64,000 nucleotides of DNA from Christensenellales bacterium. GTDB taxonomy: Bacteria; Bacillota; Clostridia; Christensenellales; MGBC116941. Position numbers and translations under genes: made by a program. Shown here piece after piece: positions 41,385-63,515 of the stretch. The stretch's first letter is position 1; each line of letters opens with the position of its first letter. The DNA lies in contig JBMNTP010000001.1 of assembly GCA_050945795.1 (NCBI GenBank), positions 166,879-230,878 on the forward strand. Reading direction: 5' to 3'. The notes below the pieces were generated by a model. The model saw only the letters and a program-made list of their open reading frames with translations, was not told where the DNA came from and searched no databases.

Positions 41385-41656
41385 AACCGTTGATGCAGAG
41401 AAAAATCGGTAACGACCGGCAGCCGAAATGGCGAACGGTTCTGATCCTCCCAGAGAGCGGGCGATGGTGTGAATCCCGCAGGTGATGCCGAATAATATGG
41501 ACTGCAGAGGGCGGCGTTAAATGCGCCGACGCTAGACCCGCGTAAGAGGTCAGGGATATGCTGGTATCCTGTAAGAGAGCTTTTTTTGAAGCTAAAACAA
41601 GGTGGCACCGCGGATTATTTCGCCCTTGATTGTTTAATACAATCGAGGGCTTTTTT
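41385..41656 (+). promoter_or_regulatory. T-box leader (tRNA-sensing riboswitch), specifier UGG = Trp
   Basis: The Stem I base CC-GTTGA-TGCAG (41387-41398) pairs with CTGCA-GA-GG (41502-41510), forming the GA/K-turn motif. The AG bay is AGAGAG (41452-41457) and the distal loop is GGTGTGAA (41466-41473). TGG (41498-41500) plus the conserved A (41501) abuts the basal helix. The T-box sequence is AACAAGGTGGCACCGCGG (41596-41613). The terminator is GCCCTTGATTGT/ACAATCGAGGGC (41622-41650) followed by T6. Confidence 0.85.
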
Positions 41657-41680
41657 ATTGGAAAGGGAAAGAATATTATT

Positions 41681-42661
41681 ATGAGTAAAAATAAAGTGTA
41701 TGAAAACAAAGTTGTAATTATAGGCGCCGGGCATGTCGGCTCACACTGCGCTTTAGCGCTCGCCACGCAGGAGCTGTGCAAAGAAATTATCCTTGTGGAT
41801 ATTAACAATGCCAAAGCTTCAGCTCACGCGGAGGACATCGCCGACGCGCTTATATTCCCCTGCCGCCATGTATCTGTGCGCCAGGGCGAGCTTAAAGAAT
41901 GCGCCGACGCCGCCATCGTCATAATAGCGATTGGTCAGCCGTATCGGCAGGGGCAGACCCGCCTTGATTTAATCGATGATTCTATTCGCATGATTCACGA
42001 GCTAATAAACGACCTTCGCGCTGTCGACGTTGGCGGCATCGTTATAACTATCACAAATCCCGCCGACATAGTGGCAGACTATGTGCGCCGGGGGCTCGGT
42101 CTTCCTCGTGAGCGGGTTTTTAGCACCGGCACATTGCTTGATACAGCGCGCCTAGTACGTATTTTATCTAATAAGAGCGGTGTTAGCCCTTCCTCTATAC
42201 AGGCTTATGTAATGGGCGAACACGGCGCTTCCGCTATGATTCCCTTTTCGCTGGCGCGTATAGGAGCTCTTGATTATAAAGCATATGGCATAGATAAAAA
42301 GTACGTGCTTGAGCTTACCCGCTCTATAGGCATGGAGATTATAGGCGGAAAGCTAAGTACGGAATTCGGTATAGGTCAGGTCAGCGCTATGCTGTGCCGC
42401 TGTATACTGCGCGATGAAAAGCAGATACTGCCGCTTTCGGTGCTGCTTGATGGAGAATACGGCCAGCATGATCTACATGCCGGAGTGCCCTGTCGAGTCG
42501 GGCGCGGCGGTGTGGAATCCATAATCGAACTGCCGCTTACAACCGAAGAACAAGCCATGTTCGATAACTCTTGTGATGTGATACGCCGCTACCAACATCG
42601 CGCCTTCGAGATAGCGCCTCTTGATCGTCGATGGCGAAGCGATAAATCAGATAAGCGGTAA
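41681..42661 (+). CDS. L-2-hydroxyacid dehydrogenase of the LDH/MDH family (substrate uncertain)
   Basis: ATG at 41681. Rossmann motif VVIIGAGHVGS; substrate loop GQPYRQGQTRLDL; ITNPADI; GTLLDTAR (Arg171 equivalent); GEHGAS (catalytic His). The ORF-track start at 41630 lies inside the T-box terminator. Confidence 0.85.
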   Translation: MSKNKVYENKVVIIGAGHVGSHCALALATQELCKEIILVDINNAKASAHAEDIADALIFPCRHVSVRQGELKECADAAIVIIAIGQPYRQGQTRLDLIDDSIRMIHELINDLRAVDVGGIVITITNPADIVADYVRRGLGLPRERVFSTGTLLDTARLVRILSNKSGVSPSSIQAYVMGEHGASAMIPFSLARIGALDYKAYGIDKKYVLELTRSIGMEIIGGKLSTEFGIGQVSAMLCRCILRDEKQILPLSVLLDGEYGQHDLHAGVPCRVGRGGVESIIELPLTTEEQAMFDNSCDVIRRYQHRAFEIAPLDRRWRSDKSDKR

Positions 42662-42700
42662 ATAATATTTGAATTTTTATATATTGAAAGAGGTATTTCT

Positions 42701-43684
42701 ATGAAAACCAAGAATATAGTCGTATTCCTGCTCATCTTTATTATGAGCTTTACAATTTTAACCGGCTGCGCATCAAACGGCGAACAAAAGATGCGGGTAG
42801 CAATAGTGCAGCCCATGAGCCACACCTCGCTTGACCAAATCCGCGACACTATAGTAGCGGAACTTGGCGACGAGTATGACATTACGCTGCTAAATACCAA
42901 CGGCGATAACTCGGCATTGGCAACGGTTTTTCAAAACGTCAAAAGCCAAAACATTGACATCGTAATCCCCATAGCCACTTCCGCCGCGCAGAGCGCCAAA
43001 ACTGTTTTTGAGGGCAGCAATACGCCCATAGTATTTTCCGCCGTTTCCGATCCTGTTTCCGCCGGGCTTACCGGCGACGATGCGAAAAACATCACCGGCA
43101 TCTCAAACAATATACCGGCTGATGAAATCGTTAAATTGATTTCGAATTTCCAGCCCGACTATAGCAAAATCGGCTTTCTCTACACTTCAAGCGAAGTAAA
43201 TTCCGTTTCTACCATAAACGCCGCTAAAGCATACTGCGATGAGAACGGCATCGCTTATGAGGAAGCCTCCATCGCCGAGTTGCGCGACCTGCCCACCGCC
43301 GTCAACACCCTCATTTCAAAAGGCGTTGACGCGCTGTACACCGGCAACGACAACGCCATCGCCTCGGCTATGCTCGTTTATACCGATCTCGCTTATGGCA
43401 AGAAAATACCGGTATACTGCGGTGCCGATTCTATGGTTTCGGATGGCGGCTTTGCTACTATCGGCATAGATTATGTTGAGCTGGGCAAACAGACGGCTGA
43501 ACTCGTTAAAAAAATCGCCGGCGGCGAAAAGCCCTTCGATCTGCCCTATACGGTTTTGACAGAATACGTCCGCTTTGTAAACCTGCAGGCCGCCAATCGC
43601 CTAGGTCTTTCGCTAAGCGAAAGTATGCTTGAAGAGTATGAAATCCTGGTTGAAAAAGACGGCACAAGTCACTTTGGGAAATGA
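42701..43684 (+). CDS. ABC transporter substrate-binding lipoprotein (ABC_sub_bind / COG2984 family)
   Basis: Lipobox LTGCAS. RVAIVQPMSHTSLDQIRDTIVAEL...IVIPIATSAAQSA...PIVFSAVSDPVSAGL is typical of the COG2984 family. Confidence 0.85.
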   Translation: MKTKNIVVFLLIFIMSFTILTGCASNGEQKMRVAIVQPMSHTSLDQIRDTIVAELGDEYDITLLNTNGDNSALATVFQNVKSQNIDIVIPIATSAAQSAKTVFEGSNTPIVFSAVSDPVSAGLTGDDAKNITGISNNIPADEIVKLISNFQPDYSKIGFLYTSSEVNSVSTINAAKAYCDENGIAYEEASIAELRDLPTAVNTLISKGVDALYTGNDNAIASAMLVYTDLAYGKKIPVYCGADSMVSDGGFATIGIDYVELGKQTAELVKKIAGGEKPFDLPYTVLTEYVRFVNLQAANRLGLSLSESMLEEYEILVEKDGTSHFGK

Positions 43685-43693
43685 GGCAAAAGC

Positions 43694-44641
43694 ATGGATT
43701 ATATTGGAATGCTGCTTTCGGCAGTAGGGCAGGGTCTGCTATACGCGCCTATGGCAATGGGCGTTTATATAGCTTTTAGGATATTAAAAACGCCCGACCT
43801 TACAGTTGACGGCAGTTTTGTGTTCGGCATGACGGTATGCGCCGTTATAACTGTAGCCGGGCATCCCCTTTTGGCTATACCGGCCGGCGTAGTGGCCGGA
43901 GCAATTGCCGGATGGATAACCGGCGTACTTCAAACAACGCTCTGCATTAACGCCATACTCTCCGGCATACTCACCATGACAGGGCTGTATACCATAAACT
44001 ACGCCATATTAGGCGGCCAGTCTAATCTGTATTTACAGCATATGGTAACAGGCCAAGGCGGCACTCAAACGCCGGAAGCCAGCGTTACGATTTATCGGCT
44101 GTTTGCTTCGGCATTAGACCTCGGCGCGTACAGCGAGCCTATACTTACAGCGCTTATTACGGCGGCTGTGGCGGCGGTGTTGATAGTGTTTTTCAAGACA
44201 CACCCCGGCATGGCTATTAGAGCCACAGGCGATAATGAGGAGATGGTGCGCTCCTCCTCTATAAACGCCGGACAGGCGCGCCGCACCGGTATTATGATGG
44301 CTAACGCGCTTGTCGGCCTTTCAGGCGCTCTGCTATGCCAGCAGCAGCGTTACGCCGACCTATCGAGCGGCAGCGGAACGCTGGTTGTAGGGTTGGCGTC
44401 GGTAATTATAGGGCTCGTGCTATTTGGCCGCCGCAGCGTAACGGCGGGTGTTCTTTCGGCTATCGTGGGTTCTTTGCTGTATCGCGCCATTCTCCAGGCC
44501 GCTTATCTTATAGATATGCCGAGCTACATGGTCAAGCTGCTTTCGGCGATTATAGTGGTGTTCGCCCTTACGCTGCCTCTTATCAAAAAAAAGGCGCAGG
44601 CGGCAAACACACGCCAAAAAGCACGAAAGGAGGCGGAGTAA
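43694..44641 (+). CDS. ABC transporter permease (COG4120 family)
   Basis: 315 aa with about 8-9 TM helices. The N-terminus GQGLLYAPMAMGVYIAFRILKTPDLTVDGSF is typical of this family. It is contiguous with the binding protein and the ATPase. Confidence 0.85.
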   Translation: MDYIGMLLSAVGQGLLYAPMAMGVYIAFRILKTPDLTVDGSFVFGMTVCAVITVAGHPLLAIPAGVVAGAIAGWITGVLQTTLCINAILSGILTMTGLYTINYAILGGQSNLYLQHMVTGQGGTQTPEASVTIYRLFASALDLGAYSEPILTALITAAVAAVLIVFFKTHPGMAIRATGDNEEMVRSSSINAGQARRTGIMMANALVGLSGALLCQQQRYADLSSGSGTLVVGLASVIIGLVLFGRRSVTAGVLSAIVGSLLYRAILQAAYLIDMPSYMVKLLSAIIVVFALTLPLIKKKAQAANTRQKARKEAE

Positions 44642-45448
44642 ATGGCGTCATATCTGGATTTCCAAAGCCTTAATAAGCGCTTTGAGCCCGGCACCATAAA
44701 CGAAAAGATAGCGCTTGATAATTTTACATTAAAAGCCCCTAAAGGCGATTTTATAACCATTCTTGGCTCAAACGGCGCCGGCAAATCGACGCTCTTTAAC
44801 GCTATCCTAGGAAAATTCCCTCTCGATAGCGGTAAAATACTTGTCGATGGCGAGGATATTACATATCAAAAGGATTATAGGCGGGCGCTCAATATTGGCT
44901 GCCTGTTTCAAGATCCGTTGCGCGGCACAGCTCCAAATATGACCATAGAGGAAAATCTGGCGCTGGCTTATACGCGCAAATCCTCACGATCGCTTTTCGC
45001 GGTCAATCGCAAGAATACAGCGGTGTTCCGCGAATGGCTGTCAACACTCCATATGGGGCTTGAAGACCGCATGAAAAGCAAGATGGGCACGCTCTCAGGC
45101 GGCCAGAGGCAAGCCGCCGCGCTGTTGATGGCGACAATTGCCCGCCCCAAATTGCTGCTGCTTGACGAGCACACCGCCGCGCTTGATCCGGCGGCGTCTG
45201 AAAAAGTACTGCGCATCACAAAAGATATTGTCGCAGAGCACGGGCTTACAACGCTTATGATAACGCATGATATGAATTACGCGCTTGAATGCGGCAACAG
45301 GACTATTGTTATGGATGCCGGCCGCCTTATATTGGACATACAAGGCGACGAGCGCCGCAACATGACCCCACTAAAACTCACCGATATGTTTATAAACGCC
45401 ACAAAGAGCATTCTGACCGACCGCAGTATGCTAACAAGCCGCCAATAA
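44642..45448 (+). CDS. ABC transporter ATP-binding protein (COG1101 family)
   Basis: Walker A GSNGAGKST, signature LSGGQRQ, Walker B LLLLDEHTAALD. The start abuts the permease stop. Confidence 0.9.
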   Translation: MASYLDFQSLNKRFEPGTINEKIALDNFTLKAPKGDFITILGSNGAGKSTLFNAILGKFPLDSGKILVDGEDITYQKDYRRALNIGCLFQDPLRGTAPNMTIEENLALAYTRKSSRSLFAVNRKNTAVFREWLSTLHMGLEDRMKSKMGTLSGGQRQAAALLMATIARPKLLLLDEHTAALDPAASEKVLRITKDIVAEHGLTTLMITHDMNYALECGNRTIVMDAGRLILDIQGDERRNMTPLKLTDMFINATKSILTDRSMLTSRQ

Positions 45449-45855: not shown

Positions 45856-46542
45856 ATGAATAAAAAGAAATTTTCATCTGAGCTGGCTCTCGTTTTGGGT
45901 CTGCTGTTAAATAGTTTGGCGGTGGCTTTTATGGCGCAAAGCGATTTTGGTGTCTCCTCGCTGACGAGTTTCCCTCTGGCGCTGAGCTATTTGCTGCCGC
46001 GGCTTAGCTTTGGAATGTGGAGCTTTCTATGGCAAGTTCTCGCCATAGCGATGCTTATAATCATGACAAGAAGCTTTCGCTGGGGATATCTTATCTCCTT
46101 TTTTATCGGCAGTATATTCGGCTATTTGCTGGACCTCTTTACTCCGCTTTTATCCCATCTGCCGCAGATGCTGCCCTTGCGCATATTATATTATGTAATC
46201 GGTATGCTGATTTTATCGATAGGCATCAGCCTGCTTTTGCGCTGTCGCCTGCCAATTTTGCCATTCGAGACATTTATACGTGGGGTATCGTCACATTTTA
46301 ACTGGCCTGTTAAATGGATTAAAACAATCTATGACTGCACCAGCGTATTGCTAGCGCTCCTCACATCGCTCCTTTTTGGGCGATTGGTCGGTGTAGGCAT
46401 CGGCACCATCGCCAGCGCGCTTATGCAAGGAACTCTAATACAGCGCAATTTCCGCTTTCTTGATAGCCGCTTTACTTTTGAGGCTACCGTGCCTCAGATT
46501 GGACGCTTTATTGAGATGGAAGAGCGAGAAAAAAGCGCATAG
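45856..46542 (+). CDS. YczE/YitT-like integral membrane protein
   Basis: 228 aa with 5-6 TM helices. The N-terminus ALVLGLLLNSLAVAFMAQSDFGVSSLTSFPLAL resembles the YczE (DUF6198) family. AAGGAG RBS. Confidence 0.6.
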   Translation: MNKKKFSSELALVLGLLLNSLAVAFMAQSDFGVSSLTSFPLALSYLLPRLSFGMWSFLWQVLAIAMLIIMTRSFRWGYLISFFIGSIFGYLLDLFTPLLSHLPQMLPLRILYYVIGMLILSIGISLLLRCRLPILPFETFIRGVSSHFNWPVKWIKTIYDCTSVLLALLTSLLFGRLVGVGIGTIASALMQGTLIQRNFRFLDSRFTFEATVPQIGRFIEMEEREKSA

Positions 46543-46764
46543 CCCAGTATCGGCTTATAAAGAGGTAGGCTTGTTTTTGAGCGCACATTTCGTATCTACC
46601 TACATTTAGTTAACAAAAAACAGCATATAAAAGGCGCTCGTATTTTAAGAGCGCGCTTTTTACTGTTATGCAAAATCCCTATATATGCAAAATCATATTA
46701 TTATTTATATCATGTCGTTCAATAATTCTCTTTAACGCTGATTAATGCTAGTTCCACAGCCTTA

Positions 46765-47553
46765 TCAAAGTATCGTTACATTGTGCGCCGCCGCCTTATC
46801 TCTAAGCGACGCCGGCAATTCTAAAGGATCTACTTCGGTAATAAGATAATCATAATCGCCTATATCGGCAAAAGTATACGCATACACCCTGCCTATTTTT
46901 GAAGTGTCAAAAAGCATGGCAGACTGCTTAGCCTTTTGCGTTACTAGCGTCTTTATCTGATGCTCGGTTTCGTTGCCGCATGTACAGCCGTAATCGTTGG
47001 CGTATCCGGTGCTTACTACAAACGCAAACTCAATATTAATCGCCGCCAGCATTTCCATAGTAGTTGCGCCCGATAAAGCGAGATTGGTTTTATTGAGTAT
47101 GCCGCCGCACAACGTTATTGTTAAGAGCGGATTTTTAGAAAGCTCAAGCGCCGTATTAGGGCCATTTGTAATAATGTTGCAGTTAACATTCGGAGCTACT
47201 TTCGCCAACTCAATCGCCGTTGTTCCGGCGTCGATGAATACGCTTTTTTTATTATCCAGCAGAGAAAGCGCCTTTTGCGCTATAGTCCGCTTGGCCTCTT
47301 TGTTAACCCCTTCTCTTGCCGAAAAGACGGCTACTGTTTTTTGCATTAATATAGACTTTTGCTCATCAGCCGCGTTTATTCGCCTCGCGCCGCCGCGCAC
47401 CTTTACCAGCAGCCCTTTTTCCTGAAGATAAGATAAATCCCTGTGAATAGTCATAGTGCTTACGTCGGGAAACAATTCGGAAAGCTGATCTATAGTCACA
47501 AGGTCTTTAGACTTTACAAAATCGTATATTTTTTCTCTGCGGATGCTGTTCAT
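46765..47553 (-). CDS. DeoR/GlpR family transcriptional regulator
   Basis: From the ATG at 47553: MNSIRREKIYDFVKSKDLVTIDQLSELFPDVSTMTIHRDLSYLQEKGLLVKVRGGA (DeoR HTH), then a DeoR-C sugar-phosphate-binding domain (IFIDAGTT...). The longer TTG-initiated ORF adds 15 aa. Confidence 0.8.
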   Translation of the reverse strand: MNSIRREKIYDFVKSKDLVTIDQLSELFPDVSTMTIHRDLSYLQEKGLLVKVRGGARRINAADEQKSILMQKTVAVFSAREGVNKEAKRTIAQKALSLLDNKKSVFIDAGTTAIELAKVAPNVNCNIITNGPNTALELSKNPLLTITLCGGILNKTNLALSGATTMEMLAAINIEFAFVVSTGYANDYGCTCGNETEHQIKTLVTQKAKQSAMLFDTSKIGRVYAYTFADIGDYDYLITEVDPLELPASLRDKAAAHNVTIL

Positions 47554-47817
47554 ATGTGAAATATCCTTTGCAACCGATTCATAATTCATGGATCGCAATT
47601 TAGATTTATGTATTGAATTATAACATTTTAAAACAAATCCGTCAATATTTCTCCAATCTCGCTCCTCATTAAATCAGTGCCCCGCGCCCATCACGCCACA
47701 CCCTTAACTGTTGGGCACTCTTAATACCCGCATACTTGTCTTTCATTATAATATCCTCCGCTAACACGCCGCTTGTTATCAAGCGTATAAATCATGCTTT
47801 AATTCGTTTATATATGA

Positions 47818-47846
47818 TTGACACAGCGTTATTGTTGCATTATAAT
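47818..47846 (+). promoter_or_regulatory. consensus sigma-A promoter for gap
   Basis: TTGACA (47818-47823), a 17-nt spacer, then TATAAT (47841-47846). This leaves a 5' UTR of about 170 nt before the gap ATG. Confidence 0.5.
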
Positions 47847-48024
47847 GTTATAAACTGCATTGTTTCTCACATTATATAACATCAAGGCATAGCATTGTAA
47901 TCCAAATATAACTCGCGGGCTTAACGCCAAAGTATGTATTTCGCAATTATTGATAAACTTAGCCGGTTAAAACCGGAAATATTGTTTGCATATAATATCA
48001 CCAATGTAAGAAAGGATATTTAAA

Positions 48025-49059
48025 ATGGCAAAAATCAAGGTTGGAGTAGCGGGATACGGAGTAATCGGGCAGCGCCTCGCCGACGGCGTGGCGTTACAGG
48101 GCGATATGGAGCTTGTTGGCATAGCCGATCTTGCGCCGACGCTGTCAATCCGCGCCCTTCATGAAAAAGGCATGCCATACGACCTTTATCTCGTCGACGG
48201 CGCTGATAAAAGCAAATTCGACGCTCTTGGCATGCCCGTCGCCGGAACATTTGAGGAATTGGTCGGCAAGGTAGATATAATGCTCGACAGTTCGCCCGGC
48301 GGTGTAGGCGTGAAGAATAAAGAGCTGTATGCGAAAAAAGGCGTTAAGGCTGTTTTCCAAGGTGGCGAGCAGAATTCTGTAGCCGACGTGTTTTTCCACG
48401 GCTACGCCAACTATGAAAAAGGCTTAGGGGCAAACTACCTCAAGCTTACCAGCTGCAACACCACCGGACTTATTCGAGTCGTAGACTGCCTCGATCGCGC
48501 CTGCGGCCTTGAAAAGGTAGCTATAACCATAATACGCCGCGTCGCCGATCCCGGCGATTATCACCGCGGCCTTACAAACGCCCTTCAGATGGAGAAGGCG
48601 CCGAGCCATCAGGCGGTAGACCTTATGACAATCATGCCGCATGTTAGCGCAACAGGCATACTCGTGCATACACCGGTAACGCACGGCCACATTATAACAG
48701 TACTCGCGAGCGGCAAAAACGGCAGCAAAATCAGCAGAGAAACAGCTCTTGAGGTGCTATCAAAACACCCGCGCATACGCATCGTCAGCATGGACGACGG
48801 CTTTCTCGGCAACGCCAGCCTTTTCCGCTATGCCCGTGATTTAGGCAATCCGCGCGGCGATATGTATGAGATTGCCTTGTGGGAAGACAGTGTTGTAGAA
48901 AGCGGAAACGATGTTATGTTCGCTATAAATATACCGCAAGAAAGCGTTACAATACCCGAAAGCATAGACGCTGTGCGCGCGGCAATGCAGATGCAGCCGA
49001 GTCGCGAAGAGGGTACTACGGCTACTAATAAATACCTCGGAATAGGAAAATGGATGTAA
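48025..49059 (+). CDS. gap: type II (archaeal-type) glyceraldehyde-3-phosphate dehydrogenase
   Basis: MAKIKVGVAGYGVIGQRLADGVALQGDMELVGIAD..., catalytic SCNTTGL, IIRRVADPGD, and the tail ESVTIPESIDAVRAM. It aligns by eye along its whole length with Pyrococcus/Methanococcus-type GAPDH rather than bacterial GapA (no SCTTNC motif). Confidence 0.85.
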   Translation: MAKIKVGVAGYGVIGQRLADGVALQGDMELVGIADLAPTLSIRALHEKGMPYDLYLVDGADKSKFDALGMPVAGTFEELVGKVDIMLDSSPGGVGVKNKELYAKKGVKAVFQGGEQNSVADVFFHGYANYEKGLGANYLKLTSCNTTGLIRVVDCLDRACGLEKVAITIIRRVADPGDYHRGLTNALQMEKAPSHQAVDLMTIMPHVSATGILVHTPVTHGHIITVLASGKNGSKISRETALEVLSKHPRIRIVSMDDGFLGNASLFRYARDLGNPRGDMYEIALWEDSVVESGNDVMFAINIPQESVTIPESIDAVRAAMQMQPSREEGTTATNKYLGIGKWM

Positions 49060-49163
49060 TCCGGCTCATACCCGCCGGAATATAATTCCGGTATTTTGAT
49101 AATAAGGCGATGGGCAGCGGGGCTGCAAGGGGTTTCGTTGCCTTAGCCTTAGATAATTTTTAA

Positions 49164-49184
49164 GTGGCCTCGGCCACTTTTTCT
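49164..49184 (+). terminator. weak hairpin plus T-run between gap and pgk (possible attenuator)
   Basis: AGTGG-CCTCGG-CCACT followed by TTTTTCT. TATAAT at 49185-49190 directly follows. Confidence 0.3.
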
Positions 49185-49226
49185 ATAATAGACGTTAAGA
49201 ACTCTTAAATTGAGAGGAGAAAGGCG

Positions 49227-50486
49227 ATGCAGTTTGGCATAAATACGCTTGACGATTTTTCCGTATCCGGCAAAACAGTACTTTGCCGCGTAGATATAAA
49301 CCAGCCCGTCGATCGAGAAACGGGCAAACTTAAAAGCACCGCCCGCATAGAGGCCTGCGTGCCTACTATAAAGGAGCTTTCGGATAAAGGCGCGAAGGTG
49401 GTACTGCTGGCGCATCAAGGCAGCGACATAGAATACAAGAACTTTTATACCACACAGCCGCACGCCGCAATACTAAGCGCATTTTTAGGGCGGCAAGTGC
49501 AATTTATTGACGACGTATGCGGTCCGGCGGCTCGCGAGCGTATAGCGGCTCTAAAGAACGGCGAAATACTTCTCCTTGACAATGTGCGCTTCTGCTCTGA
49601 AGAACAAACGCTTTTCGAGCTTAAGCTTAAACTAACGCATAAGCAGCAGGCTGATACTGAAGTTGTTAGAAAACTCAGCCCGCTTGCCGACATATATGTA
49701 TGCGACGCCTTTGCCGCCGCGCACCGCGACCAGCCCAGTCTTTGCGGCTTTGAACAGGTGCTGCCCTCGGCTATGGGCCGGCTTTTTGAAAAGGAATACA
49801 GCGTTATATCGTCGCTTATGCAAAACCCCGCCCGCCCCTGTACATTTGTATTGGGCGGCACCAAAATATCCGACGCTTTCGTTATGATGGAGACTGTACT
49901 CAAAGGCGGCATAGCTGATAATGTGCTTACCGGCGGGCTTGTCGCCAATATACTTCTAGCCGCCAAAGGCGAAAACATAGGAAGCGGCAGCCTAGATTTT
50001 ATAATGCGCTCAAACTACGGCGAGTATATAGAAAAGGCGCGCTCGCTTTATAATAAATACGCCTCACGCATACACTTGCCAAGCGATTTGGCTTATGTAT
50101 TAGACAGCAGCCGCAAAGAAGCCGTTCTAGGCTCTATACCAAGCGATATAACGGCGCTTGATATAGGCGCAAAAACTGCGCTGCGATACGCCGATATAAT
50201 AATGACATCTAAAACTGTGTTTGTAAACGGGCCTATGGGCGTTTTTGAGCAGCCGGAGACAGAGCTTGGCACAAGCTCAATATGGGACGCGCTTGGCAGC
50301 ACAACCGCCTATACCGTTATAGGCGGCGGCGACAGCATAACCGCCACTACTAAATACGACAAAACACAAAACATTTCATACATCTGCACCGGCGGCGGCG
50401 CTCTTATACGCTTTCTTAGCGGAGAGGAACTGCCGGTAATAAAAGCGCTGCGACACGCCGCAGCAACATTCCCTACGCGTAAATAA
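49227..50486 (+). CDS. pgk: phosphoglycerate kinase, archaeal-like sequence type
   Basis: LDDFSVSGKTVLCRVDINQPVDRETGKLKSTARIEACVPTIKELSDKGAKVVLLAHQG and C-terminal ICTGGGALIRFLSGEELPVIKAL resemble archaeal PGK more than the bacterial RVDFNVP type. 419 aa. Confidence 0.8.
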   Translation: MQFGINTLDDFSVSGKTVLCRVDINQPVDRETGKLKSTARIEACVPTIKELSDKGAKVVLLAHQGSDIEYKNFYTTQPHAAILSAFLGRQVQFIDDVCGPAARERIAALKNGEILLLDNVRFCSEEQTLFELKLKLTHKQQADTEVVRKLSPLADIYVCDAFAAAHRDQPSLCGFEQVLPSAMGRLFEKEYSVISSLMQNPARPCTFVLGGTKISDAFVMMETVLKGGIADNVLTGGLVANILLAAKGENIGSGSLDFIMRSNYGEYIEKARSLYNKYASRIHLPSDLAYVLDSSRKEAVLGSIPSDITALDIGAKTALRYADIIMTSKTVFVNGPMGVFEQPETELGTSSIWDALGSTTAYTVIGGGDSITATTKYDKTQNISYICTGGGALIRFLSGEELPVIKALRHAAATFPTRK

Positions 50487-50533
50487 AGCTGTATCAATAT
50501 TAAATTTTAAATCTACATTCACAAAACAGCATA

Positions 50534-50567
50534 AAAACGCCGGTTCGTTTTATGGAACCGGCGTTTT
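50534..50567. terminator. bidirectional terminator (pgk / copZ)
   Basis: AAAACGCCGGTTC-GTTTTATG-GAACCGGCGTTTT. Confidence 0.8.
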
Positions 50568-50578
50568 ACTTGGAGCGA

Positions 50579-50788
50579 TTATTTAACCACTTCGTAGCCC
50601 TGGTCTTCTATGGCGTTTTCAATATCCTTGCTTGTTACCTTAGCCGGATCAAATTCTACCGACACCGTCTTATCCGCGAGGCTTACATCAACCTTCAAAA
50701 CGCCGTCAAGCTCTCCAACCGCCTTTTTAACAGCGTTTTCACAGTGCGAGCATGTCATGCCTTCAACATTCAATAAAATCGCTTGCAT
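50579..50788 (-). CDS. copZ: copper chaperone CopZ
   Basis: 69 aa HMA domain with GMTCSHCENAV. Confidence 0.9.
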   Translation of the reverse strand: MQAILLNVEGMTCSHCENAVKKAVGELDGVLKVDVSLADKTVSVEFDPAKVTSKDIENAIEDQGYEVVK

Positions 50789-50801
50789 TATTATTCCCTC
50801 C

Positions 50802-51479
50802 CTATTCTAAATCAAACGACGTAAGCAGCATATCCCTCTTTGCCATTTTGCCGTTTTCATCCATAGTTTCAACCTCTAAAACCTGCCAGCCGGCTATAGT
50901 GGCGGTATCAATGCCCGCCCCTTCAAATGGCTCGGGGTTTAGCACGAAAACAATGTCCATATCATTCTTGTCAAAATCCTTTGCCCATTCAAAGGCATTG
51001 CCTCCGCCCATATTTATAGTAAAATGGTCCATCTCCATATGATACTGCATGCTATCGGGCGACATCGCCATTATCCTTTTAAACGCATCGTAAGGGTCTT
51101 CATACCCGCCTATCTCGGCATCCCTGCCAAAGTCGCCGGGCACGAGCAATGTACCCTCTTTGGCAGCCTCAACGCCGTCCGGCAAAGCGGTCATATCAAG
51201 CCCCGCATCTATAAACGGTCGAGCGTCAAACTCCATCCATAGATCCGGCCCCGCCGCGCCTATGTTATTACTCCAAAGGAAGCGGGCAGCTCCGTCCGGC
51301 GACGCCAACCCCCACGCACCAAGCATATCGTCTAACGCCACATTGTCTTTAGATATCTCCAGCAGCTCTGCAAACGATTCGTCCGCCTTTTGCCCTATCA
51401 CATCGAGATTAGCGCAAGCCGTAAGCAGCACAACCGCCGCCAGCGCCACCGCCGTTATAACAATCTTTTTTGACCTCAT
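50802..51479 (-). CDS. uncharacterised lipoprotein encoded inside the copper operon
   Basis: AGAGGGG RBS and lipobox LLTACA. Met/His-rich segment RIMAMSPDSMQYHMEMDHF. It sits 33 nt after copA and 13 nt before copZ. Confidence 0.6.
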   Translation of the reverse strand: MRSKKIVITAVALAAVVLLTACANLDVIGQKADESFAELLEISKDNVALDDMLGAWGLASPDGAARFLWSNNIGAAGPDLWMEFDARPFIDAGLDMTALPDGVEAAKEGTLLVPGDFGRDAEIGGYEDPYDAFKRIMAMSPDSMQYHMEMDHFTINMGGGNAFEWAKDFDKNDMDIVFVLNPEPFEGAGIDTATIAGWQVLEVETMDENGKMAKRDMLLTSFDLE

Positions 51480-51512
51480 AGATAGTTTCCCCTCTTTCTT
51501 TAGCAGATTATA

Positions 51513-53975
51513 TCAATGATACGGCTTAAAGCGTTTAAGCCTAAGCGCGTTTGTCACAACGGAAACCGAACTTAGCGCCATAGCCGCCGCTGCTATCATG
51601 GGATTTAGCAGCGGGCCGCCGAACAGGTATAATACACCTGCCGCTACGGGTATGCCAAGCGTATTGTAGCCAAAAGCCCAGAACAGGTTTTCCTTTATGT
51701 TTCTTATGGTGCTTTTGCTAAGGTTAATAGCGGTAGGCACATCCATAAGATCGCTCTTCATAAGCACTATGTCGGCCGATTCCATGGCTACATCAGTGCC
51801 GGAGCCTATCGCTATGCCTATATTAGCCTGCACCAGCGCCGGAGCGTCATTTATGCCGTCGCCTACCATAGCAACATTTTTACCTTCGTCCTGTAATTTT
51901 TTAACCTCGCTCGACTTATCCTGCGGCAACACCTCGGCAAGCACCCGCGTTATGCCGACCTGCCGCGCTATGGCCTCCGCCGTCTTTCGGTTATCGCCGG
52001 TTATCATGGCAACCTCTATGCCCATATCAGAAAGCTTTTTAATAGCCCTCGCGCTGCTTTCCTTTACAACGTCCGCCACCGCTATAATGCCGGCTATGCT
52101 GCCATTTATCGCCGCGAACATAGGCGTCTTACCTTCTCCCGCCAAGCGGTCGGCGTCTTCCATAAGGCCGGATATATCGATACCTCTGTCATCCATAAGC
52201 TTTTTGTTGCCTATAAGAACGGCGTCTTCGCCCGCCATAACCTCTATACCATGCCCCGGCAACGCCATAAAACCGGATGTTTCGGGCAACTTAAGGCCCT
52301 CTTTTTCCGCCGCTCGTATTATCGCCTGTCCAAGCGGATGCTCGCTGCCTTTTTCCGCCGCCGCAGACGCTGCGAGCAGCCTATCTCTATCTATGCCCTT
52401 AGCCGTTATAATGTCGGTCATTTCGGGCTGTCCTTCTGTTATAGTGCCTGTTTTATCAAAAACAATCGTATCTATTTTATGCGCCGCCTCCAGCGCCTCT
52501 CCGCCCTTTATAAGTATGCCGTATTCAGCTCCCTTGCCTGTTCCAACCATTATGGCGGTAGGCGTTGCCAGCCCCAGCGCGCAGGGGCAGGCTATAACAA
52601 GCACAGATATAAATACAGTTAGCGCGAAGGTAAGCGTCTGTCCTCCAATAAGCCAGCCTAAAAACGCCGCCAAGGCTATCAGGCAAACGGCGGGTACAAA
52701 GTAGCTTGAAACAACATCCGCCATTTTAGCTATCGGCGCCTTTGTGCCTTGCGCGTCCTCAACAAGCTTTATTATCTGGGCAAGCGCAGTATCCTTGCCA
52801 ACTTTTGTAGCTTTAAACTGTATAGAGCCGTTGCTGTTTATAGTAGCGGCGTATACATTATCGCCGGCCTTTTTATCAATAGGCATGCTCTCACCCGTCA
52901 GCATAGATTCGTCTATCGATGTATGCCCGTCTATAACAACACCGTCTACCGGTATTTTTTCCCCCGGTTTAACCAGTATAACATCGCCCTGTTCCACTTC
53001 GTCAATCGGCATTTCTATTTCGACGCCGTCGTGTATTACGGTAGCCGTTTTTGGGGCCAGCCCCATAAGCTTTTTTATCGCCTCGGAGGTCTTGCCCTTT
53101 GACACCGTTTCGAGTGTTTTGCCTAACATTATAAGCGTTATTATTACGCCTACCGTCTCAAAGTACAGCGCGTCAACCATGGCAAAATTGCCGGTATAAA
53201 TCTGATATGTGGCATAAGCGCTGTATATAAACGCCGCCGACGTTCCCACCGCTATAAGCGAGTCCATATTAGGGCTGCCCTTGAACAAAGCTCTAAAGCC
53301 TACTGTATAGAAGCGGCTGCCGGCTATCATTATAGGTATAACGAGTATTATCTGTACCAGCGCGTAAACGAGCGGATACCGCATAGGCGCCATAAAATCC
53401 GGCACTGAAATCGGCAGCCATGGCAGCATAGGCGCCATAGCTACATAAAAAAGCGGTATGCCGAATATGGCCGATACAATAAACTTCGTCCACATCGTAC
53501 GAATTTCCTTATCCTTGCGCGCCCTGTCCTCATCAACCGTCTCTTTTTCAAGGTTAAGCGGCTTATACCCAAGCTTCTCTATTGTCTGCTTTATATATGA
53601 AAGCTTAACTATTTGAGGATCATACTCAACCGCCGCCTTTTCAGACGCTAAATTAACCGAGGCCGACACCACGCCATCAAGCTTCGATAAAACCTTTTCA
53701 ATTCTTTGCGAGCAGGCAGCGCAGGTCATACCGCCTATGGGTATTACAACGCTGTTTGTATGCTTTTCCTCAACAACGCCGTACCCCGCCTTTTCAATCG
53801 CTGCCTTTATATCTTCTTTTGATACAGCAGTCTCATCGTATTGTATAGACAACTTTTCTGTAGCGAAATTAACCTCCGCCTCGTTTACCCCGGGTAGCTT
53901 GCCAACCGACTTCCCTACCCTTTGAGCGCACGCCGCACACGTCATTCCTGTGATACCTATGCTCTCCTTTTTCAT
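51513..53975 (-). CDS. copA: copper-translocating P1B-type ATPase
   Basis: Two N-terminal HMA domains ([22 protein letters not shown]), TGES, CPC motif ([11 protein letters not shown]), DKTGT, and GDGINDAP. Confidence 0.95.
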
Positions 53976-54076
53976 ATCCTACCAAGCCTTTCTTTGCCTA
54001 ATACAGCGATATGCTTCGCCACATCCGGCATCTATAAATATCTTCAAAGCCGCGGTCTTGAAAAATCGCTCCGCCG

Positions 54077-54427
54077 CTACAACATTCTTCCTATAATCCT
54101 TATAAGTTCATCAACAACTCCGTCGTCTCCTTCATGTATCCTGTCCAAAAGGCAACCGTGTATATGGTTTTCCATTACCAGCTTGCTTACAGAGGTAAGA
54201 GCCGCCTTTGCCGCCGTTATCTGGTTTAGCACGTCCTCACAATAAGTATCTTTTTCTATCATGCCCTTTATGCCTCTTACCTGACCTTCAACACAACTAA
54301 GCCGACGCACAAGCGCCGCCTTAAGCTTTTCCTCTCTTACAGTCTTTCGTTCGTTGCATCCTTCACATTTATTATTCAAATCGGTTTTTACGGCTTTTTC
54401 ACCGTTATCTTTAATTAAATTATCCAT
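54077..54427 (-). CDS. csoR: CsoR family copper-sensing repressor
   Basis: From the ATG at 54427 (RBS GGGGGAGG). The core RLSCVEGQVRGIKGMIEKDTYCEDVLNQITAAKAALTSVSKLVMENHIHGCL carries the Cys/His/Cys ligand pattern. The N-terminal extension carries a CEGC pair. Confidence 0.85.
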   Translation of the reverse strand: MDNLIKDNGEKAVKTDLNNKCEGCNERKTVREEKLKAALVRRLSCVEGQVRGIKGMIEKDTYCEDVLNQITAAKAALTSVSKLVMENHIHGCLLDRIHEGDDGVVDELIRIIGRML

Positions 54428-61199: not shown

Positions 61200-62225
61200 C
61201 TAGAACAGCGAACCGCTGTTCACAACGGGCTGGGCTTCCTTACTTCCGCACAGCACCACCAGCAGATTAGATACCATTGCCGCCTTGCGTTCGCTGTCCA
61301 ATTCCACAATATCATTGTCCTTAAGCTTGCCAAGCGCCATCTCTACCATGCCTACCGCCCCTTCGACAATAAGCTTACGGGCGTCAATTATAGCGCTGGC
61401 CTGCTGACGCTGCAGCATAGCGGCGGCAATCTCCGGCGCGTACGCCAGATGCGTAATGCGCGTTTCAAGTATTTCAAGACCGGCGTCCTGCACCTTAGCT
61501 TGCAGCTCCTCCCTAAGCTTTAGCGCAACCTCCTGACTGCTGCCGCGAAGAGACATCTCGTCGGCACCTTCATTTTCATCCCATATGTCATAAGGATAAA
61601 GCCGAACAATATTTCTAAGCGAGCTATCGGCCTGAATAGACAGAAAGGAAATATAGTTATCAACATTAAACACAGCCTTTGTAGCGTTTACCACCCGCCA
61701 TATTACGACAACGCCTATCTCTATCGGATTTCCCATTTTATCGTTTACCTTCTGCTTGTTGTTATCAAGCGTCATAATCTTAAGAGAAATGGCGTTTCCC
61801 CTCGCTGTATCCGTTTTATCCGATTTATCGGTGCGGAGATTGAGCTGCTCCGCCACCGCAGCCGCTAATACCGAAGACTTTGTAGGGTTTATTGGTGTAA
61901 CAAACGGGTTTAGAAAGTAAAATCCCGGCGATTCAATAGTGCCGTAATATTTGCCGAATAGTGTCAATACCAGAGCTTCGTTTGGTTTAACCACTTTAAG
62001 GCCAATAAATATTATAGGACAAACTATAAATGCCACAATAGACGATATTACCGCGAAAACTATGCCTAAAGTTCTTGTCGCCTCGTTGCCCTGTTCAATA
62101 ATTATTACTGAATATACGAAAAGGGCTGTAAATGCGATTATGGCGATTATGTTCATTATTAAAACGCCCATACCGCTTCGGGTCTTAATGTTCTTTTGCT
62201 CCGAAAACAATTCTGTCCGACTCAT
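61200..62225 (-). CDS. SPFH/band-7 domain membrane protein
   Basis: AGGAGG RBS, two N-terminal TM helices, SPFH core ([31 protein letters not shown]...) and a C-terminal Ala/Gln-rich helix ([19 protein letters not shown]). Confidence 0.85.
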
Positions 62226-62438
62226 AGGACACCTCCTATTATATTAATTCGATATCATTATGATATCATACTTCCTGTATCTGTCAATTGTATTTGCGCC
62301 GTATGCCATGATAAAAATTATAGATTTCTCGCCTGTCACCCGTCGGTTATTAAACATTGGGCATTTAGCTATAATAAGATGTTTCGCGCTTTACGGTGTT
62401 ATGATAAAATGAAACAAATAAAGAAGGGAGGTGCGTTC

Positions 62439-63515
62439 ATGGCTCAAAGAATAGGTATTTTAACAAGCGGCGGCGATTGCCCGGGGCTAAACGCAGTAAT
62501 CCGAGGAGTTGCGAAGGCGGCTTACGAACGCATGAAAGGCGTTGAAATAGTAGGCATAGCCGATGGTTATCGCGGCCTTATAAGCGGAGAGGCGCGACTT
62601 ATGGCACGCAGCGAATTTTCAGGTATACTTACGCTCGGCGGCACAATACTCGGCACCTCACGTCAACCGTACAGCAAGATGCGGGTTATAGAGGATGATA
62701 TAAACAAAATCTCCAATATGAAAGCAAACTATAAAAAAATGGGGCTCGACTGCCTTTTGATACTCGGCGGCAACGGCACGCACAAAACCGCCAATCTTCT
62801 TAGCGAGGAAGGGCTTAATGTAATAGGCCTGCCCAAAACAATAGACAACGACATATGGGGCAGCGATGTTACTTTTGGCTTCCATTCCGCCGTAGACATC
62901 GCAACAGACGTAGTCGATCGCATACATACAACTGCCGCCAGCCATAACCGCGTAATGCTTATAGAGCTTATGGGCAACAAAGCCGGCTGGCTTACGCTTT
63001 ATGCCGGCATCGCCGGAGGGGCGGATATAATACTTATACCCGAAATACCGTTTAATATGGAAAGCATTTTAAAAGCAATAAGTAAACGTGGTAAGGAGGG
63101 AAAATCATTTTCCATACTCGCCGTAGCAGAAGGCGTAAAGGACGAAGAGGAAGCCAAGCTTCGTAAAAAAGACCTCGCCAGCAAACGCGCGAGCTGCGCC
63201 GAGACCACCGCCTCAAACCGCATAGCCAACGCTATTGAGCAGGAAACAGGCATGGAAACGCGTGTCGTAGTGCCAGGGCATGTACAGCGCGGCGGCCCAC
63301 CCTCGCCTTACGATCGCCTTCTGTCAACGCAGTTCGGCGTTTATGCCGCCATGCTTATAGAGAAAAAGCAATACGGCGTAAGCGTCGCTATGGTGAATAA
63401 TATGGTAACGCATAATCCTTTAAAAGACGTTGCCGGAAAAACTAAATTTGTACCGGCCGACCATCAGATGATTAAGGCGGCGCGGCGCATGGGCGTGTGC
63501 TTTGGAAACGAATAA
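62439..63515 (+). CDS. pfkA: 6-phosphofructokinase
   Basis: The ATG at 62439 follows GAAGGGAGG. MAQRIGILTSGGDCPGLNAVIRG, LLILGGNGT, PKTIDNDI. 358 aa. The 81-aa N-terminal extension in the track is non-genic. Confidence 0.9.
   Translation: MAQRIGILTSGGDCPGLNAVIRGVAKAAYERMKGVEIVGIADGYRGLISGEARLMARSEFSGILTLGGTILGTSRQPYSKMRVIEDDINKISNMKANYKKMGLDCLLILGGNGTHKTANLLSEEGLNVIGLPKTIDNDIWGSDVTFGFHSAVDIATDVVDRIHTTAASHNRVMLIELMGNKAGWLTLYAGIAGGADIILIPEIPFNMESILKAISKRGKEGKSFSILAVAEGVKDEEEAKLRKKDLASKRASCAETTASNRIANAIEQETGMETRVVVPGHVQRGGPPSPYDRLLSTQFGVYAAMLIEKKQYGVSVAMVNNMVTHNPLKDVAGKTKFVPADHQMIKAARRMGVCFGNE

Follow-up and report, generated by a model that had tools for sequence, protein, structure and literature searches.

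A type II GAPDH-phosphoglycerate kinase pair from a Christensenellales bacterium as a possible D-malate-semialdehyde-oxidizing module separated from its inositol-catabolic partners

Three intact genes lie between positions 46765 and 50486 of a 64-kb stretch of a Christensenellales genome (hereafter the window, part of a 299-kb contig; statements on gene content refer to these 64 kb). A DeoR-family gene on the minus strand is divergent from two plus-strand genes, gap, which encodes a 344-aa homologue of type II (archaeal-family) glyceraldehyde-3-phosphate dehydrogenase (GAPDH; 48025-49059), and pgk, which encodes a 419-aa archaeal-like homologue of phosphoglycerate kinase (PGK; 49227-50486). 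We propose, in a reading to which we give an even chance of being correct, that the pair would act as an NAD+- and phosphate-dependent D-malate-semialdehyde dehydrogenase and an ATP-forming acyl-phosphate kinase, and that it would be the orphaned core of a pathway, standing behind a replaced DeoR-type regulator. Somewhat more tentatively, we suggest that the bacterial type II GAPDHs and their partner PGKs are not glycolytic and would represent the first natural phosphorylating D-malate-semialdehyde dehydrogenase and D-malyl-phosphate:ADP phosphotransferase, part of a shadow transketolase-GAPDH-PGK segment that operates on carboxylate analogues.

The 344-aa protein had been assigned to type II GAPDH in an earlier, sequence-only reading of this DNA on the strength of its SCNTTGL motif and its resemblance along the whole length, and profile searches bear this out. 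It scores 392.7 bits against NF003251 ('type II GAPDH'; cut-off 185) and 297.8 bits against TIGR01546 (cut-off 232.9), its only relatives of solved structure are four archaeal GAPDHs (S. solfataricus 1b7g, M. fervidus 1cf2, P. horikoshii 2czc and M. jannaschii 2yyy), to which it is 35-39% identical from end to end, and the NCBIfam release of June 2026 still labels it as GAPDH. The catalytic set is kept, with Cys144 in SCNTTGL (S143-C144-N-T-T), His220 and Arg171/172 aligning with C139, H219 and R166/R167 of the S. solfataricus enzyme.

Unlike the archaeal enzymes, however, the window protein belongs to a separate, bacterial clade with five residue changes and a catabolic gene context. When it was compared with the four archaeal structures and about 70 diverse family representatives, four cationic positions that are near-invariant among the latter proved to be altered: R140K, H196Q (the second His of P-S-H-H), R275N and H304P, corresponding to R135, H193, R270 and H299 in S. 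solfataricus. These four changes are unique to the clade and to its 60%-identity sister, both of which retain the Cys, the His and the Arg-Arg pair. The fifth is at position 35 (S. solfataricus K33), which is Lys in NADP-preferring archaeal enzymes and Asp in the clade; Asp, also found here elsewhere in the family, is the usual mark of NAD+ preference, and the GAPDH homologue is predicted to be of the NAD+ type. The resulting clade signature is D35, K140, Q196, N275 and P304, the last four of which are common to the window protein and all 81 clade members. We take H192/H193 and R166/R167, numbers that match our computed S. solfataricus numbering, to be anion-site residues of archaeal GAPDH.

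One bacterial type II GAPDH has been assayed. In Pseudoclostridium thermosuccinogenes, both class I GAPDHs are active and a glycolytic PGK is also present, and the type II protein CDQ83_07070, when expressed heterologously, showed no glyceraldehyde 3-phosphate (G3P) dehydrogenase activity with either NAD+ or NADP+; its authors stated that functional evidence is lacking for class II GAPDH in bacteria (PMC6543838). The cloning primers used for CDQ83_07070 encode MVKVGVA... and ...GMGKWK followed by the stop, termini typical of the window clade. We also note three full-length type II GAPDH relatives, 37-45% identical to the window protein (P0128, P0131 and P0139), that have no catalytic Cys and carry NYNIN, QPSLV or IGMVL in place of SCNTT; these are probably non-catalytic or differently catalytic.

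The 419-aa protein matches Pfam PGK (PF00162) as a full-length, two-domain enzyme (386.7 bits, residues 8-400). Its N-terminus (RVDINQPVD...LLAHQG) had been described as archaeal-like, in keeping with our finding that among the 46 PGKs in the Protein Data Bank (PDB) that it matches the best is P. horikoshii 2cun (303 bits, 41% identity), compared with at most 236 bits and 36% identity for bacterial PGKs. Equivalents of R38, H62, R122 and R170 are kept, as are the nucleotide-binding motifs of the C-domain. What differs is the motif H-x-G-[RK]-P, in ordinary enzymes S-H-L-G-R-P (bacteria) or T-H-Q-[SG]-[KR]-P (Thermococcales), which is replaced by AHQGSD, invariant in 62 of 62 clade members; the insert after the NVRF motif is also longer than in archaeal PGK. 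Of 120 Thermococcales PGKs, 118 carry the basic [KR] of this motif, as do the aligned bacterial PDB enzymes; this residue is presumably the equivalent of Arg65 (human numbering) in the basic patch that holds the 3-phosphate of 3-phosphoglycerate (3-PG), a patch left incomplete here by the loss of one of its five basic residues, the other four being kept. There is a second PGK lineage, with an AHQGDT motif and 42-46% identity to the window PGK, that is paired with the same GAPDH homologue in seven loci (L011, L013, L038, L043, L065, L068 and L076), where the stop of gap and the start of pgk overlap; it is likewise nearer to archaeal than to bacterial PGK. Because phosphate-binding-type residues have been lost in both enzymes and a clade member showed no G3P activity, the substrates of the pair are probably something other than G3P and 3-PG.

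The idea that the pair is an isolated archaeal import does not survive comparison with its relatives, as it sits within a large and tight bacterial clade. The protein collection holds 4726 relatives of the GAPDH homologue at E≤1e-10, the best 120 of which are 81-100% identical, those with names coming from Clostridia, Lachnospiraceae, Zhaonella, Deltaproteobacteria and Treponemataceae. When one genome per species was scanned, at least 568 relatives were confirmed, and the best 80 of these 568 are 79-85% identical and come from five phyla (Bacillota, Spirochaetota, Desulfovibrionaceae, Planctomycetaceae and Anaerolineaceae/Chloroflexi). Cultured carriers include Treponema primitia ZAS-10, Treponema sp. 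HNW, Zhaonella formicivorans and P. thermosuccinogenes. Clustering of a library at 50% identity reduces the clade to a single full-length representative (80%) with the sister at 60%; beyond these come isolated sequences (45% and 42%) and then the ordinary type II GAPDHs, most of them archaeal, at 27-39%. By these comparisons, the pair is part of an old or much-transferred, strongly constrained bacterial family rather than a lone archaeal import. GAP identity between phyla (80-84%) equals that within Bacillota (83.5%), but we rejected this as proof of horizontal transfer, as its lower bound is an artefact of selecting the best 80 of 568.

To describe the genomic setting of the clade, we used 81 loci, the window plus the best 80 of the 568 relatives, and mapped neighbouring families by tblastn. 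The PGK homologue stands beside the GAPDH homologue in 71 of the 81. Among the other families, a LarA-family protein (malate racemase) occurs in 59 loci, split transketolase genes in 45, one or more of iolG, iolE, iolD and iolB in 44, malic enzyme in 32, a divergent or nearby DeoR-family gene in 25, and an E1-alpha/E1-beta/E2/E3 complex of the acetoin/pyruvate dehydrogenase type in six. Where at least 6 kb is available on both sides (n=47), one or more of the racemase, transketolase, iol and E1/E2/E3 families is found in 43. The PGK homologue invariably accompanies the GAPDH homologue, and usually the malate racemase as well. In profile searches, the racemase scores 565.8 bits against NF052593 ('nickel-dependent malate racemase, LarAH6 family'; cut-off 500), and iolG and iolE give equivalog-level matches. 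No other aldehyde dehydrogenase is conserved among the mapped loci, nor are genes for formation of phosphoenolpyruvate (PEP), fbp or tpi conserved near gap-pgk in them.

The most complete arrangements are 13-gene operons in two loci (L014 and L024) with the order SBP-ABC-permease-iolE-iolB-iolD-iolG-gap-pgk-mar-ME-tktN-tktC (mar, malate racemase; ME, malic enzyme; tktN and tktC, split transketolase) and spacers of no more than 216 nt; iolC, iolJ and iolA are absent from these operons, and the spacers are too short to hold them. The nearest relative of the window protein, P0002, is on locus L083 (GAP 89% and PGK 80% identical), in the order iolD, iolB, iolE, ABC transporter, a second AP_endonuc_2 (sugar-phosphate-isomerase-fold) gene, DeoR, gap, pgk and LarA. 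Across the set, the gap-pgk-mar-(ME) core is constant and the thiamine-diphosphate-dependent C-C-cleaving enzyme varies, being either transketolase or E1/E2/E3. This combination of a constant core and a variable feeder suggests a single aldehyde intermediate common to both. The earlier suggestion of a gluconeogenic or sugar-phosphate route fares poorly against these data, the conserved neighbours being inositol-catabolic genes, transketolase, malate racemase and malic enzyme. Regarding its choice between displacement of the central gap-pgk genes and an extra module dedicated to a particular task, the latter fits better.

Other contexts were seen in the same sample. In L027, L035, L044, L063, L075 and L009 (Desulfovibrionaceae and some Bacillota), the E1-alpha/E1-beta/E2/E3 complex is followed by gap-pgk-(ME)-mar, and there is no transketolase. 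In L042, L052 and L062, gap-pgk-mar is found in a third setting together with a PdxA-like dehydrogenase, a TRAP transporter, an SDR protein and a 220-aa protein that has no NCBIfam match and whose fold is, by our unverified guess, Asp/Glu-racemase-like; this context hints at a four-carbon sugar-acid feeder route. Nine loci from rumen and gut Clostridia (L031, L037, L055, L056, L061, L066, L071, L072 and L080) contain a LacI gene, four tandem HAD-family phosphatase genes and a gene for a 521-aa protein upstream of iolG-gap-pgk (for example, L061:954-6938). The 521-aa protein matches 2,3-bisphosphoglycerate-independent phosphoglycerate mutase (iPGM) in two order-swapped stretches (residues 13-304 align with profile positions 214-504), which suggests a circularly permuted iPGM-like phosphatase or mutase, and the whole set may dephosphorylate inositol phosphates (phytate) and so feed the pathway.

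The pathway that we envisage builds on known inositol chemistry. IolG, IolE, IolD and IolB turn myo-inositol into 2-deoxy-5-keto-D-gluconate, and this acid, read from its hydroxymethyl end, is a D-threo (3S,4R) ketose, the configuration needed by transketolase and by fructose-bisphosphate-type aldolases such as IolJ. The four enzymes would thus supply a ketose resembling xylulose 5-phosphate with a carboxylate replacing the phosphate. Split transketolase would then take the C6-C5 glycolaldehyde unit, for example onto G3P to form xylulose 5-phosphate, and would leave D-malate semialdehyde (OHC-CHOH-CH2-COO-), the carboxylate analogue of D-G3P; in the variant with an acetoin-dehydrogenase-like E1/E2/E3 complex (L027, L035, L044, L063 and L075), the same aldehyde would be produced and the C2 unit would leave as acyl-CoA. 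The GAPDH homologue would convert D-malate semialdehyde, NAD+ and phosphate to D-malyl-1-phosphate, and the PGK homologue would use this with ADP to give ATP and D-malate, the analogue of 3-phospho-D-glycerate. Finally, the nickel-dependent racemase would form L-malate, and malic enzyme would convert it to pyruvate; that a racemase stands ahead of an ordinary malic enzyme would be explained by the D configuration of the predicted oxidation product. The module would amount to substrate-level phosphorylation on a carboxylate analogue of lower-glycolysis intermediates, in which 2-deoxy-5-keto-gluconate would be the equivalent of xylulose 5-phosphate, malate semialdehyde that of G3P, and D-malate that of 3-PG. 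Clade membership, neighbourhoods and substitutions are observed, and from here we infer the substrates, direction, stereochemistry, cofactor and regulation of the module.

The classical counterpart is iolABCDEFGHIJ of B. subtilis, with its DeoR-type IolR. The relatives of the window pair share its upper pathway (iolG, iolE, iolD and iolB) and often a divergent DeoR- or LacI-family regulator; in place of the IolC kinase, the IolJ aldolase and the IolA malonate-semialdehyde dehydrogenase they have transketolase, the GAPDH and PGK homologues, the racemase and malic enzyme. The predicted variant would spend no ATP on an intermediate and would gain one. The window itself contains no iol gene at all. 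There is also a resemblance to sulfo-transketolase sulfoglycolysis, in which a split transketolase acts catabolically on a non-phosphorylated anionic ketose, 6-deoxy-6-sulfofructose, although that substrate is a sulfonate rather than a carboxylate and the route has no energy-conserving step of the GAPDH/PGK type. In gene order, the window pair recalls both cggR-gapA-pgk-tpi-pgm-eno and epd-pgk of E. coli, where a GAPDH-family gene is followed by pgk and, in the second case, the GAPDH paralogue Epd has a substrate other than G3P. As the sequence-only reading had pointed out, the locus is nonetheless unlike the cggR operon: those systems have class I enzymes, a canonical PGK and, for the cggR operon, a SorC-type regulator (CggR), and here the GAPDH is type II and tpi, pgm and eno are missing, with copper-resistance genes downstream.

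Parts of the proposed chemistry have precedents. LarAH6/Mar2, the nickel-pincer enzyme of T. thermosaccharolyticum, is a proven and efficient malate racemase (PMC7583248), and the racemase adjacent to gap-pgk in the relatives is an equivalog-level match to it; the window has none. Neither that paper nor PMC11770544 mentions an inositol, transketolase, glyceraldehyde or GAPDH context for LarA racemases. A synthetic pathway to 2,4-dihydroxybutyrate (DHB) proceeds from malate via malyl phosphate to malate semialdehyde and combines the same kinase and phosphorylating semialdehyde dehydrogenase chemistry; unlike the predicted module, it was derived from aspartate kinase and aspartate-semialdehyde dehydrogenase, acts on the C4 carboxyl of L-malate and runs in the reductive direction, and its authors state that no natural route to DHB exists (PMC5481828, PMC12104201). 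Searches of the openly accessible full-text literature turned up no inositol route that depends on transketolase, no natural couple of malate semialdehyde and malyl phosphate, and no function assigned to type II GAPDH in bacteria. The upper inositol pathway, malate racemase and engineered malyl-phosphate chemistry are already known, and no earlier account of the combined pathway was found.

The window copy is set apart from most of its relatives by its surroundings. Only four of the 47 well-flanked loci (the window, L001, L006 and L062) have none of the usual partners. Hidden partners in the window were considered and rejected, as tblastn searches with the racemase, malic enzyme, transketolase, iolG/E/D/B, E1/E2/E3 and HAD/iPGM-like proteins gave only an unrelated ABC-transporter similarity and a weak E3-like match. 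The proteins themselves are close to the operon-embedded copies (GAP 79-89% and PGK 62-80% identical), with which they have all clade-signature residues in common. What has changed is the regulator. A divergent DeoR gene lies directly upstream of gap in 19 loci and belongs to at least two non-orthologous lineages; the window DeoR shares 30% identity with its positional counterpart in L083 and 23-31% with other gap-adjacent DeoRs, and it is not an orthologue of the lineage, IolR-like in role, that usually accompanies gap. Its closest homologues (at most 54% identical) head operons for a Zn-dependent alcohol dehydrogenase (Zn-ADH), E2, E3 and a fused E1; neither gap nor pgk occurs within 10 kb of these, and the idea of a DeoR orthologue always paired with gap-pgk was discarded on these grounds. 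These observations suggest that the two-gene core has been split off from the rest of the pathway and now stands behind a consensus promoter and next to a DeoR-type gene other than the usual one. Because gap and pgk are intact and keep every clade-invariant residue, and because the same locus with an identical GAP protein was recovered from two independent samples (L081 and L082), we regard the window copy as functional rather than decaying.

The operons headed by the closest DeoR homologues (L084/L087, L085 and L086) encode the Zn-ADH, E2, E3 and an 825-859-aa fused E1 (E1_dh + Transket_pyr + Transketolase_C), with a phosphofructokinase (PFK) in one locus; in L084/L087 and L086, a gene for a 622-649-aa SDR-domain protein precedes the operon, and a match to aldolase_II was seen in L086 only. 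They represent an uncharacterised thiamine-dependent catabolic system.

Several points weigh against assigning the pair to D-malate semialdehyde. The mechanism has been assembled by guilt by association and chemical logic, and the substituted GAPDH residues are presumed to line a substrate-phosphate pocket. Both proteins pass curated equivalog or family thresholds for type II GAPDH and PGK, and most substrate-binding residues are retained in both. The sole negative G3P assay used heat-treated E. coli extract, so that the protein may have been inactive or insoluble. The neighbourhood statistics, drawn from the best 80 of 568 relatives, describe the part of the clade nearest to the query. In the window itself, racemase, malic enzyme, transketolase and iol genes are absent (tblastn, E≤1e-3), and neither a feeder nor a sink for the module is detectable in the 64 kb.

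The family scores, together with the retained Cys, His and Arg pair and four of the five basic-patch residues of PGK, could be read as signs of a true but specialised GAPDH and PGK working on G3P, 1,3-bisphosphoglycerate and 3-PG, perhaps anabolically as in archaea or as B. subtilis GapB, and switched on by DeoR with non-sugar or acid substrates such as inositol-derived malate. The archaeal relatives do hold an anabolic role, and the co-located malic enzyme can be read as part of a malate-to-sugar route. We nevertheless consider this explanation unlikely: Asp35 is typical of NAD+ binding and not of anabolic NADPH use, near-invariant cationic residues have been lost from both proteins, and a clade member had no G3P activity (PMC6543838). 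Furthermore, the operons would have no oxidant for the transketolase product and no reason to encode a malate racemase, and PEP-forming, fbp and tpi genes are not conserved nearby. A more radical version, in which the archaeal-type pair has displaced the organism's own genes, is its only gap and pgk and carries the central glycolytic flux, seems to us very improbable, even though no class I gapA or second pgk is present in the window (weak similarity to E. coli GapA comes from the type II gene alone) and the perfect consensus promoter is as expected of a highly expressed gene. The residue changes and the negative assay count here too, and the cultured carrier that has been studied possesses a glycolytic PGK along with two class I GAPDHs, both active. 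Moreover, the type II gene is found both with and without an adjacent pgk, and some genomes hold two copies in different catabolic contexts (UBA6114, L004 and L020; OH_PBB_159, L009 and L022).

A further explanation, marginally less probable in our view than the specialised GAPDH and PGK, keeps the general chemistry and changes the substrate to another 2-hydroxy aldehyde-acid, such as tartrate semialdehyde from four-carbon sugar acids or 5-deoxy-D-glucuronate itself, or else makes the window copy a leftover with no pathway. It draws on the loci that adjoin PdxA-like, TRAP-transporter, SDR and Asp/Glu-racemase-like genes rather than iol genes (L042, L052 and L062), on the ability of malate racemases to epimerise tartrate as well (PMC11770544), on the four loci lacking all partners, and on the replacement of the regulator and upstream DNA in the window. 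On the other hand, no other feeder accompanies the pair nearly as often as iolB and transketolase do, which favours ketose cleavage over direct oxidation of 5-deoxyglucuronate, and the window genes are intact, with all clade-invariant residues and a consensus promoter; the identical GAP protein at the same locus in two samples likewise argues against decay. D-malate semialdehyde remains the substrate that we prefer for the pair.

The regulatory region between the divergent genes is organised much as the sequence-only reading described it. The DeoR/GlpR-family gene (46765-47553, minus strand) probably starts at the ATG at 47553, within an open reading frame (ORF) whose maximal span, 46765-47598, reaches a TTG at 47598, and encodes a 262-aa protein with HTH_DeoR (PF08220, 53.2 bits) and DeoRC (PF00455, 132.6 bits) domains that is 100% identical to NCBI protein P0290 (262 aa, from a Christensenellales metagenome-assembled genome). 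On the plus strand, a predicted sigma-70-type promoter of gap, TTGACA-17-TATAAT at 47818-47846, matches the consensus at 12 of 12 positions and places the transcription start at about 47853; the predicted leader of about 172 nt (47853-48024) contains a small hairpin (47963-47976) and, near the gap ATG, a second promoter-like site (47967-47996, plus strand, 10 of 12). A promoter-like site for deoR, TTGACG-17-TG-TATAAT, lies on the minus strand at 47617-47645 (11 of 12, with a TG extension) and overlaps an exact copy of ATGTTATAA at 47618-47626. The imperfect inverted repeat that had been noticed over the predicted gap start is a candidate operator with ATGTTATAA as its half-site (47832-47885) and covers the -10 box as well; its inner arms (47845-47857 and 47870-47882) are 13 nt long and 85% complementary, nested in outer arms (47832-47855 and 47862-47885) of 24 nt and 75% complementarity. 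There are five exact copies of ATGTTATAA in the 64 kb, and the deoR-gap intergenic region holds two exact copies and two with one mismatch (half-sites at 47618, 47746, 47845 and 47874), which overlap both -10 boxes; as ATGTTATAA contains a TATAA core, part of this enrichment near promoters is expected. Because a divergent DeoR gene recurs upstream of gap and ATGTTATAA copies overlap both -10 boxes, control by the neighbouring DeoR is plausible, and it probably represses the gap promoter through the inverted repeat. Of the previous description of the pair as DeoR-regulated, then, the divergent gene stands, and the regulation itself is argued from position, with a regulator whose homologues head unrelated operons.

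We found no sign that the leader is structured. Rfam gave no match at E≤1 in 46500-51000, nor at gathering score across the whole window, the leader folds no better than shuffled sequence (z-score +0.34), and the leader and upstream DNA cannot be aligned to the upstream regions of the relatives; a riboswitch or structured leader was rejected on these three counts. The 167-nt spacer between gap and pgk (49060-49226, plus strand) contains two terminator-like hairpins (49074-49092 and 49162-49179, with TTTTCT after the second); a TATAAT and a ribosome-binding site come next. Expression of gap and pgk may differ in level or involve separate transcripts; among the relatives, this spacer ranges from -12 to 539 nt. 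Beyond pgk, a GC-rich palindromic hairpin flanked by A/T runs (50534-50567; 13-bp stem, seven GC pairs) separates pgk from the convergent copZ and is likely to be a bidirectional terminator. The pgk stop and copZ are only 92 bp apart, and no malate racemase remnant is present between them.

The pair is surrounded by housekeeping or unrelated genes: an L-lactate dehydrogenase (L-LDH)-family gene with an ABC transporter, a DUF6198 membrane protein, the cop operon, polA, coaE and PFK. The GC content of gap-pgk resembles that of its surroundings. As the earlier reading had noted, no tpi, pgm or eno follows pgk in the window; what follows is a convergent copper-resistance operon (50579-54427, minus strand) of copZ (HMA, 69 aa), a gene for a 225-aa, lipoprotein-like protein of unknown function with no Pfam match, copA (820 aa, two N-terminal HMA domains) and csoR, for a CsoR-type repressor. 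Five kilobases upstream, an L-lactate/malate dehydrogenase-family gene (41630-42661, plus strand; 290.7 bits against the L-LDH equivalog cut-off of 303.55) is directly followed by an ABC_sub_bind / BPD_transp_2 / ABC_tran transporter (41630-45448 in all, plus strand), an unusual pairing; we considered this gene as a partner of gap-pgk and rejected it, as it goes with the transporter and has no link to the pair. The PFK gene (62196-63515, plus strand) gives 346.8 bits with Pfam PFK, but the domain begins at residue 85 of the 439-aa TTG-started ORF, which overlaps the end of an opposite-strand SPFH/Band-7 gene (61200-62225), and the true start is probably further downstream. Between 58853 and 61200, some 2.3 kb of low-GC DNA (0.40-0.43) lies after a tRNA-Arg(CCT) and contains short ORFs only, among them one for a 122-aa small membrane protein and a 63-aa ORF beside the SPFH gene, and this stretch may be the remnant of an integrated element.

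In practical terms, the window pair should not be taken as evidence of archaeal-type glycolysis or of gene displacement. If the proposed reading is correct, models of metabolism in gut, rumen and termite-gut anaerobes would be wrong wherever they assign the type II GAPDH/PGK pair to glycolysis or gluconeogenesis. The catabolism of inositol, which like phytate is an abundant dietary substrate, would have a new lower branch that conserves energy by substrate-level phosphorylation, whereas the classical route spends ATP, and anaerobes would have an ATP-yielding, kinase-free inositol route. D-malate would also have a physiological origin, and the wide distribution of nickel-pincer malate racemases would be explained. 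More broadly, it would be a case in which enzymes of central metabolism have been recruited to carboxylate mimics of their phosphate-ester substrates.

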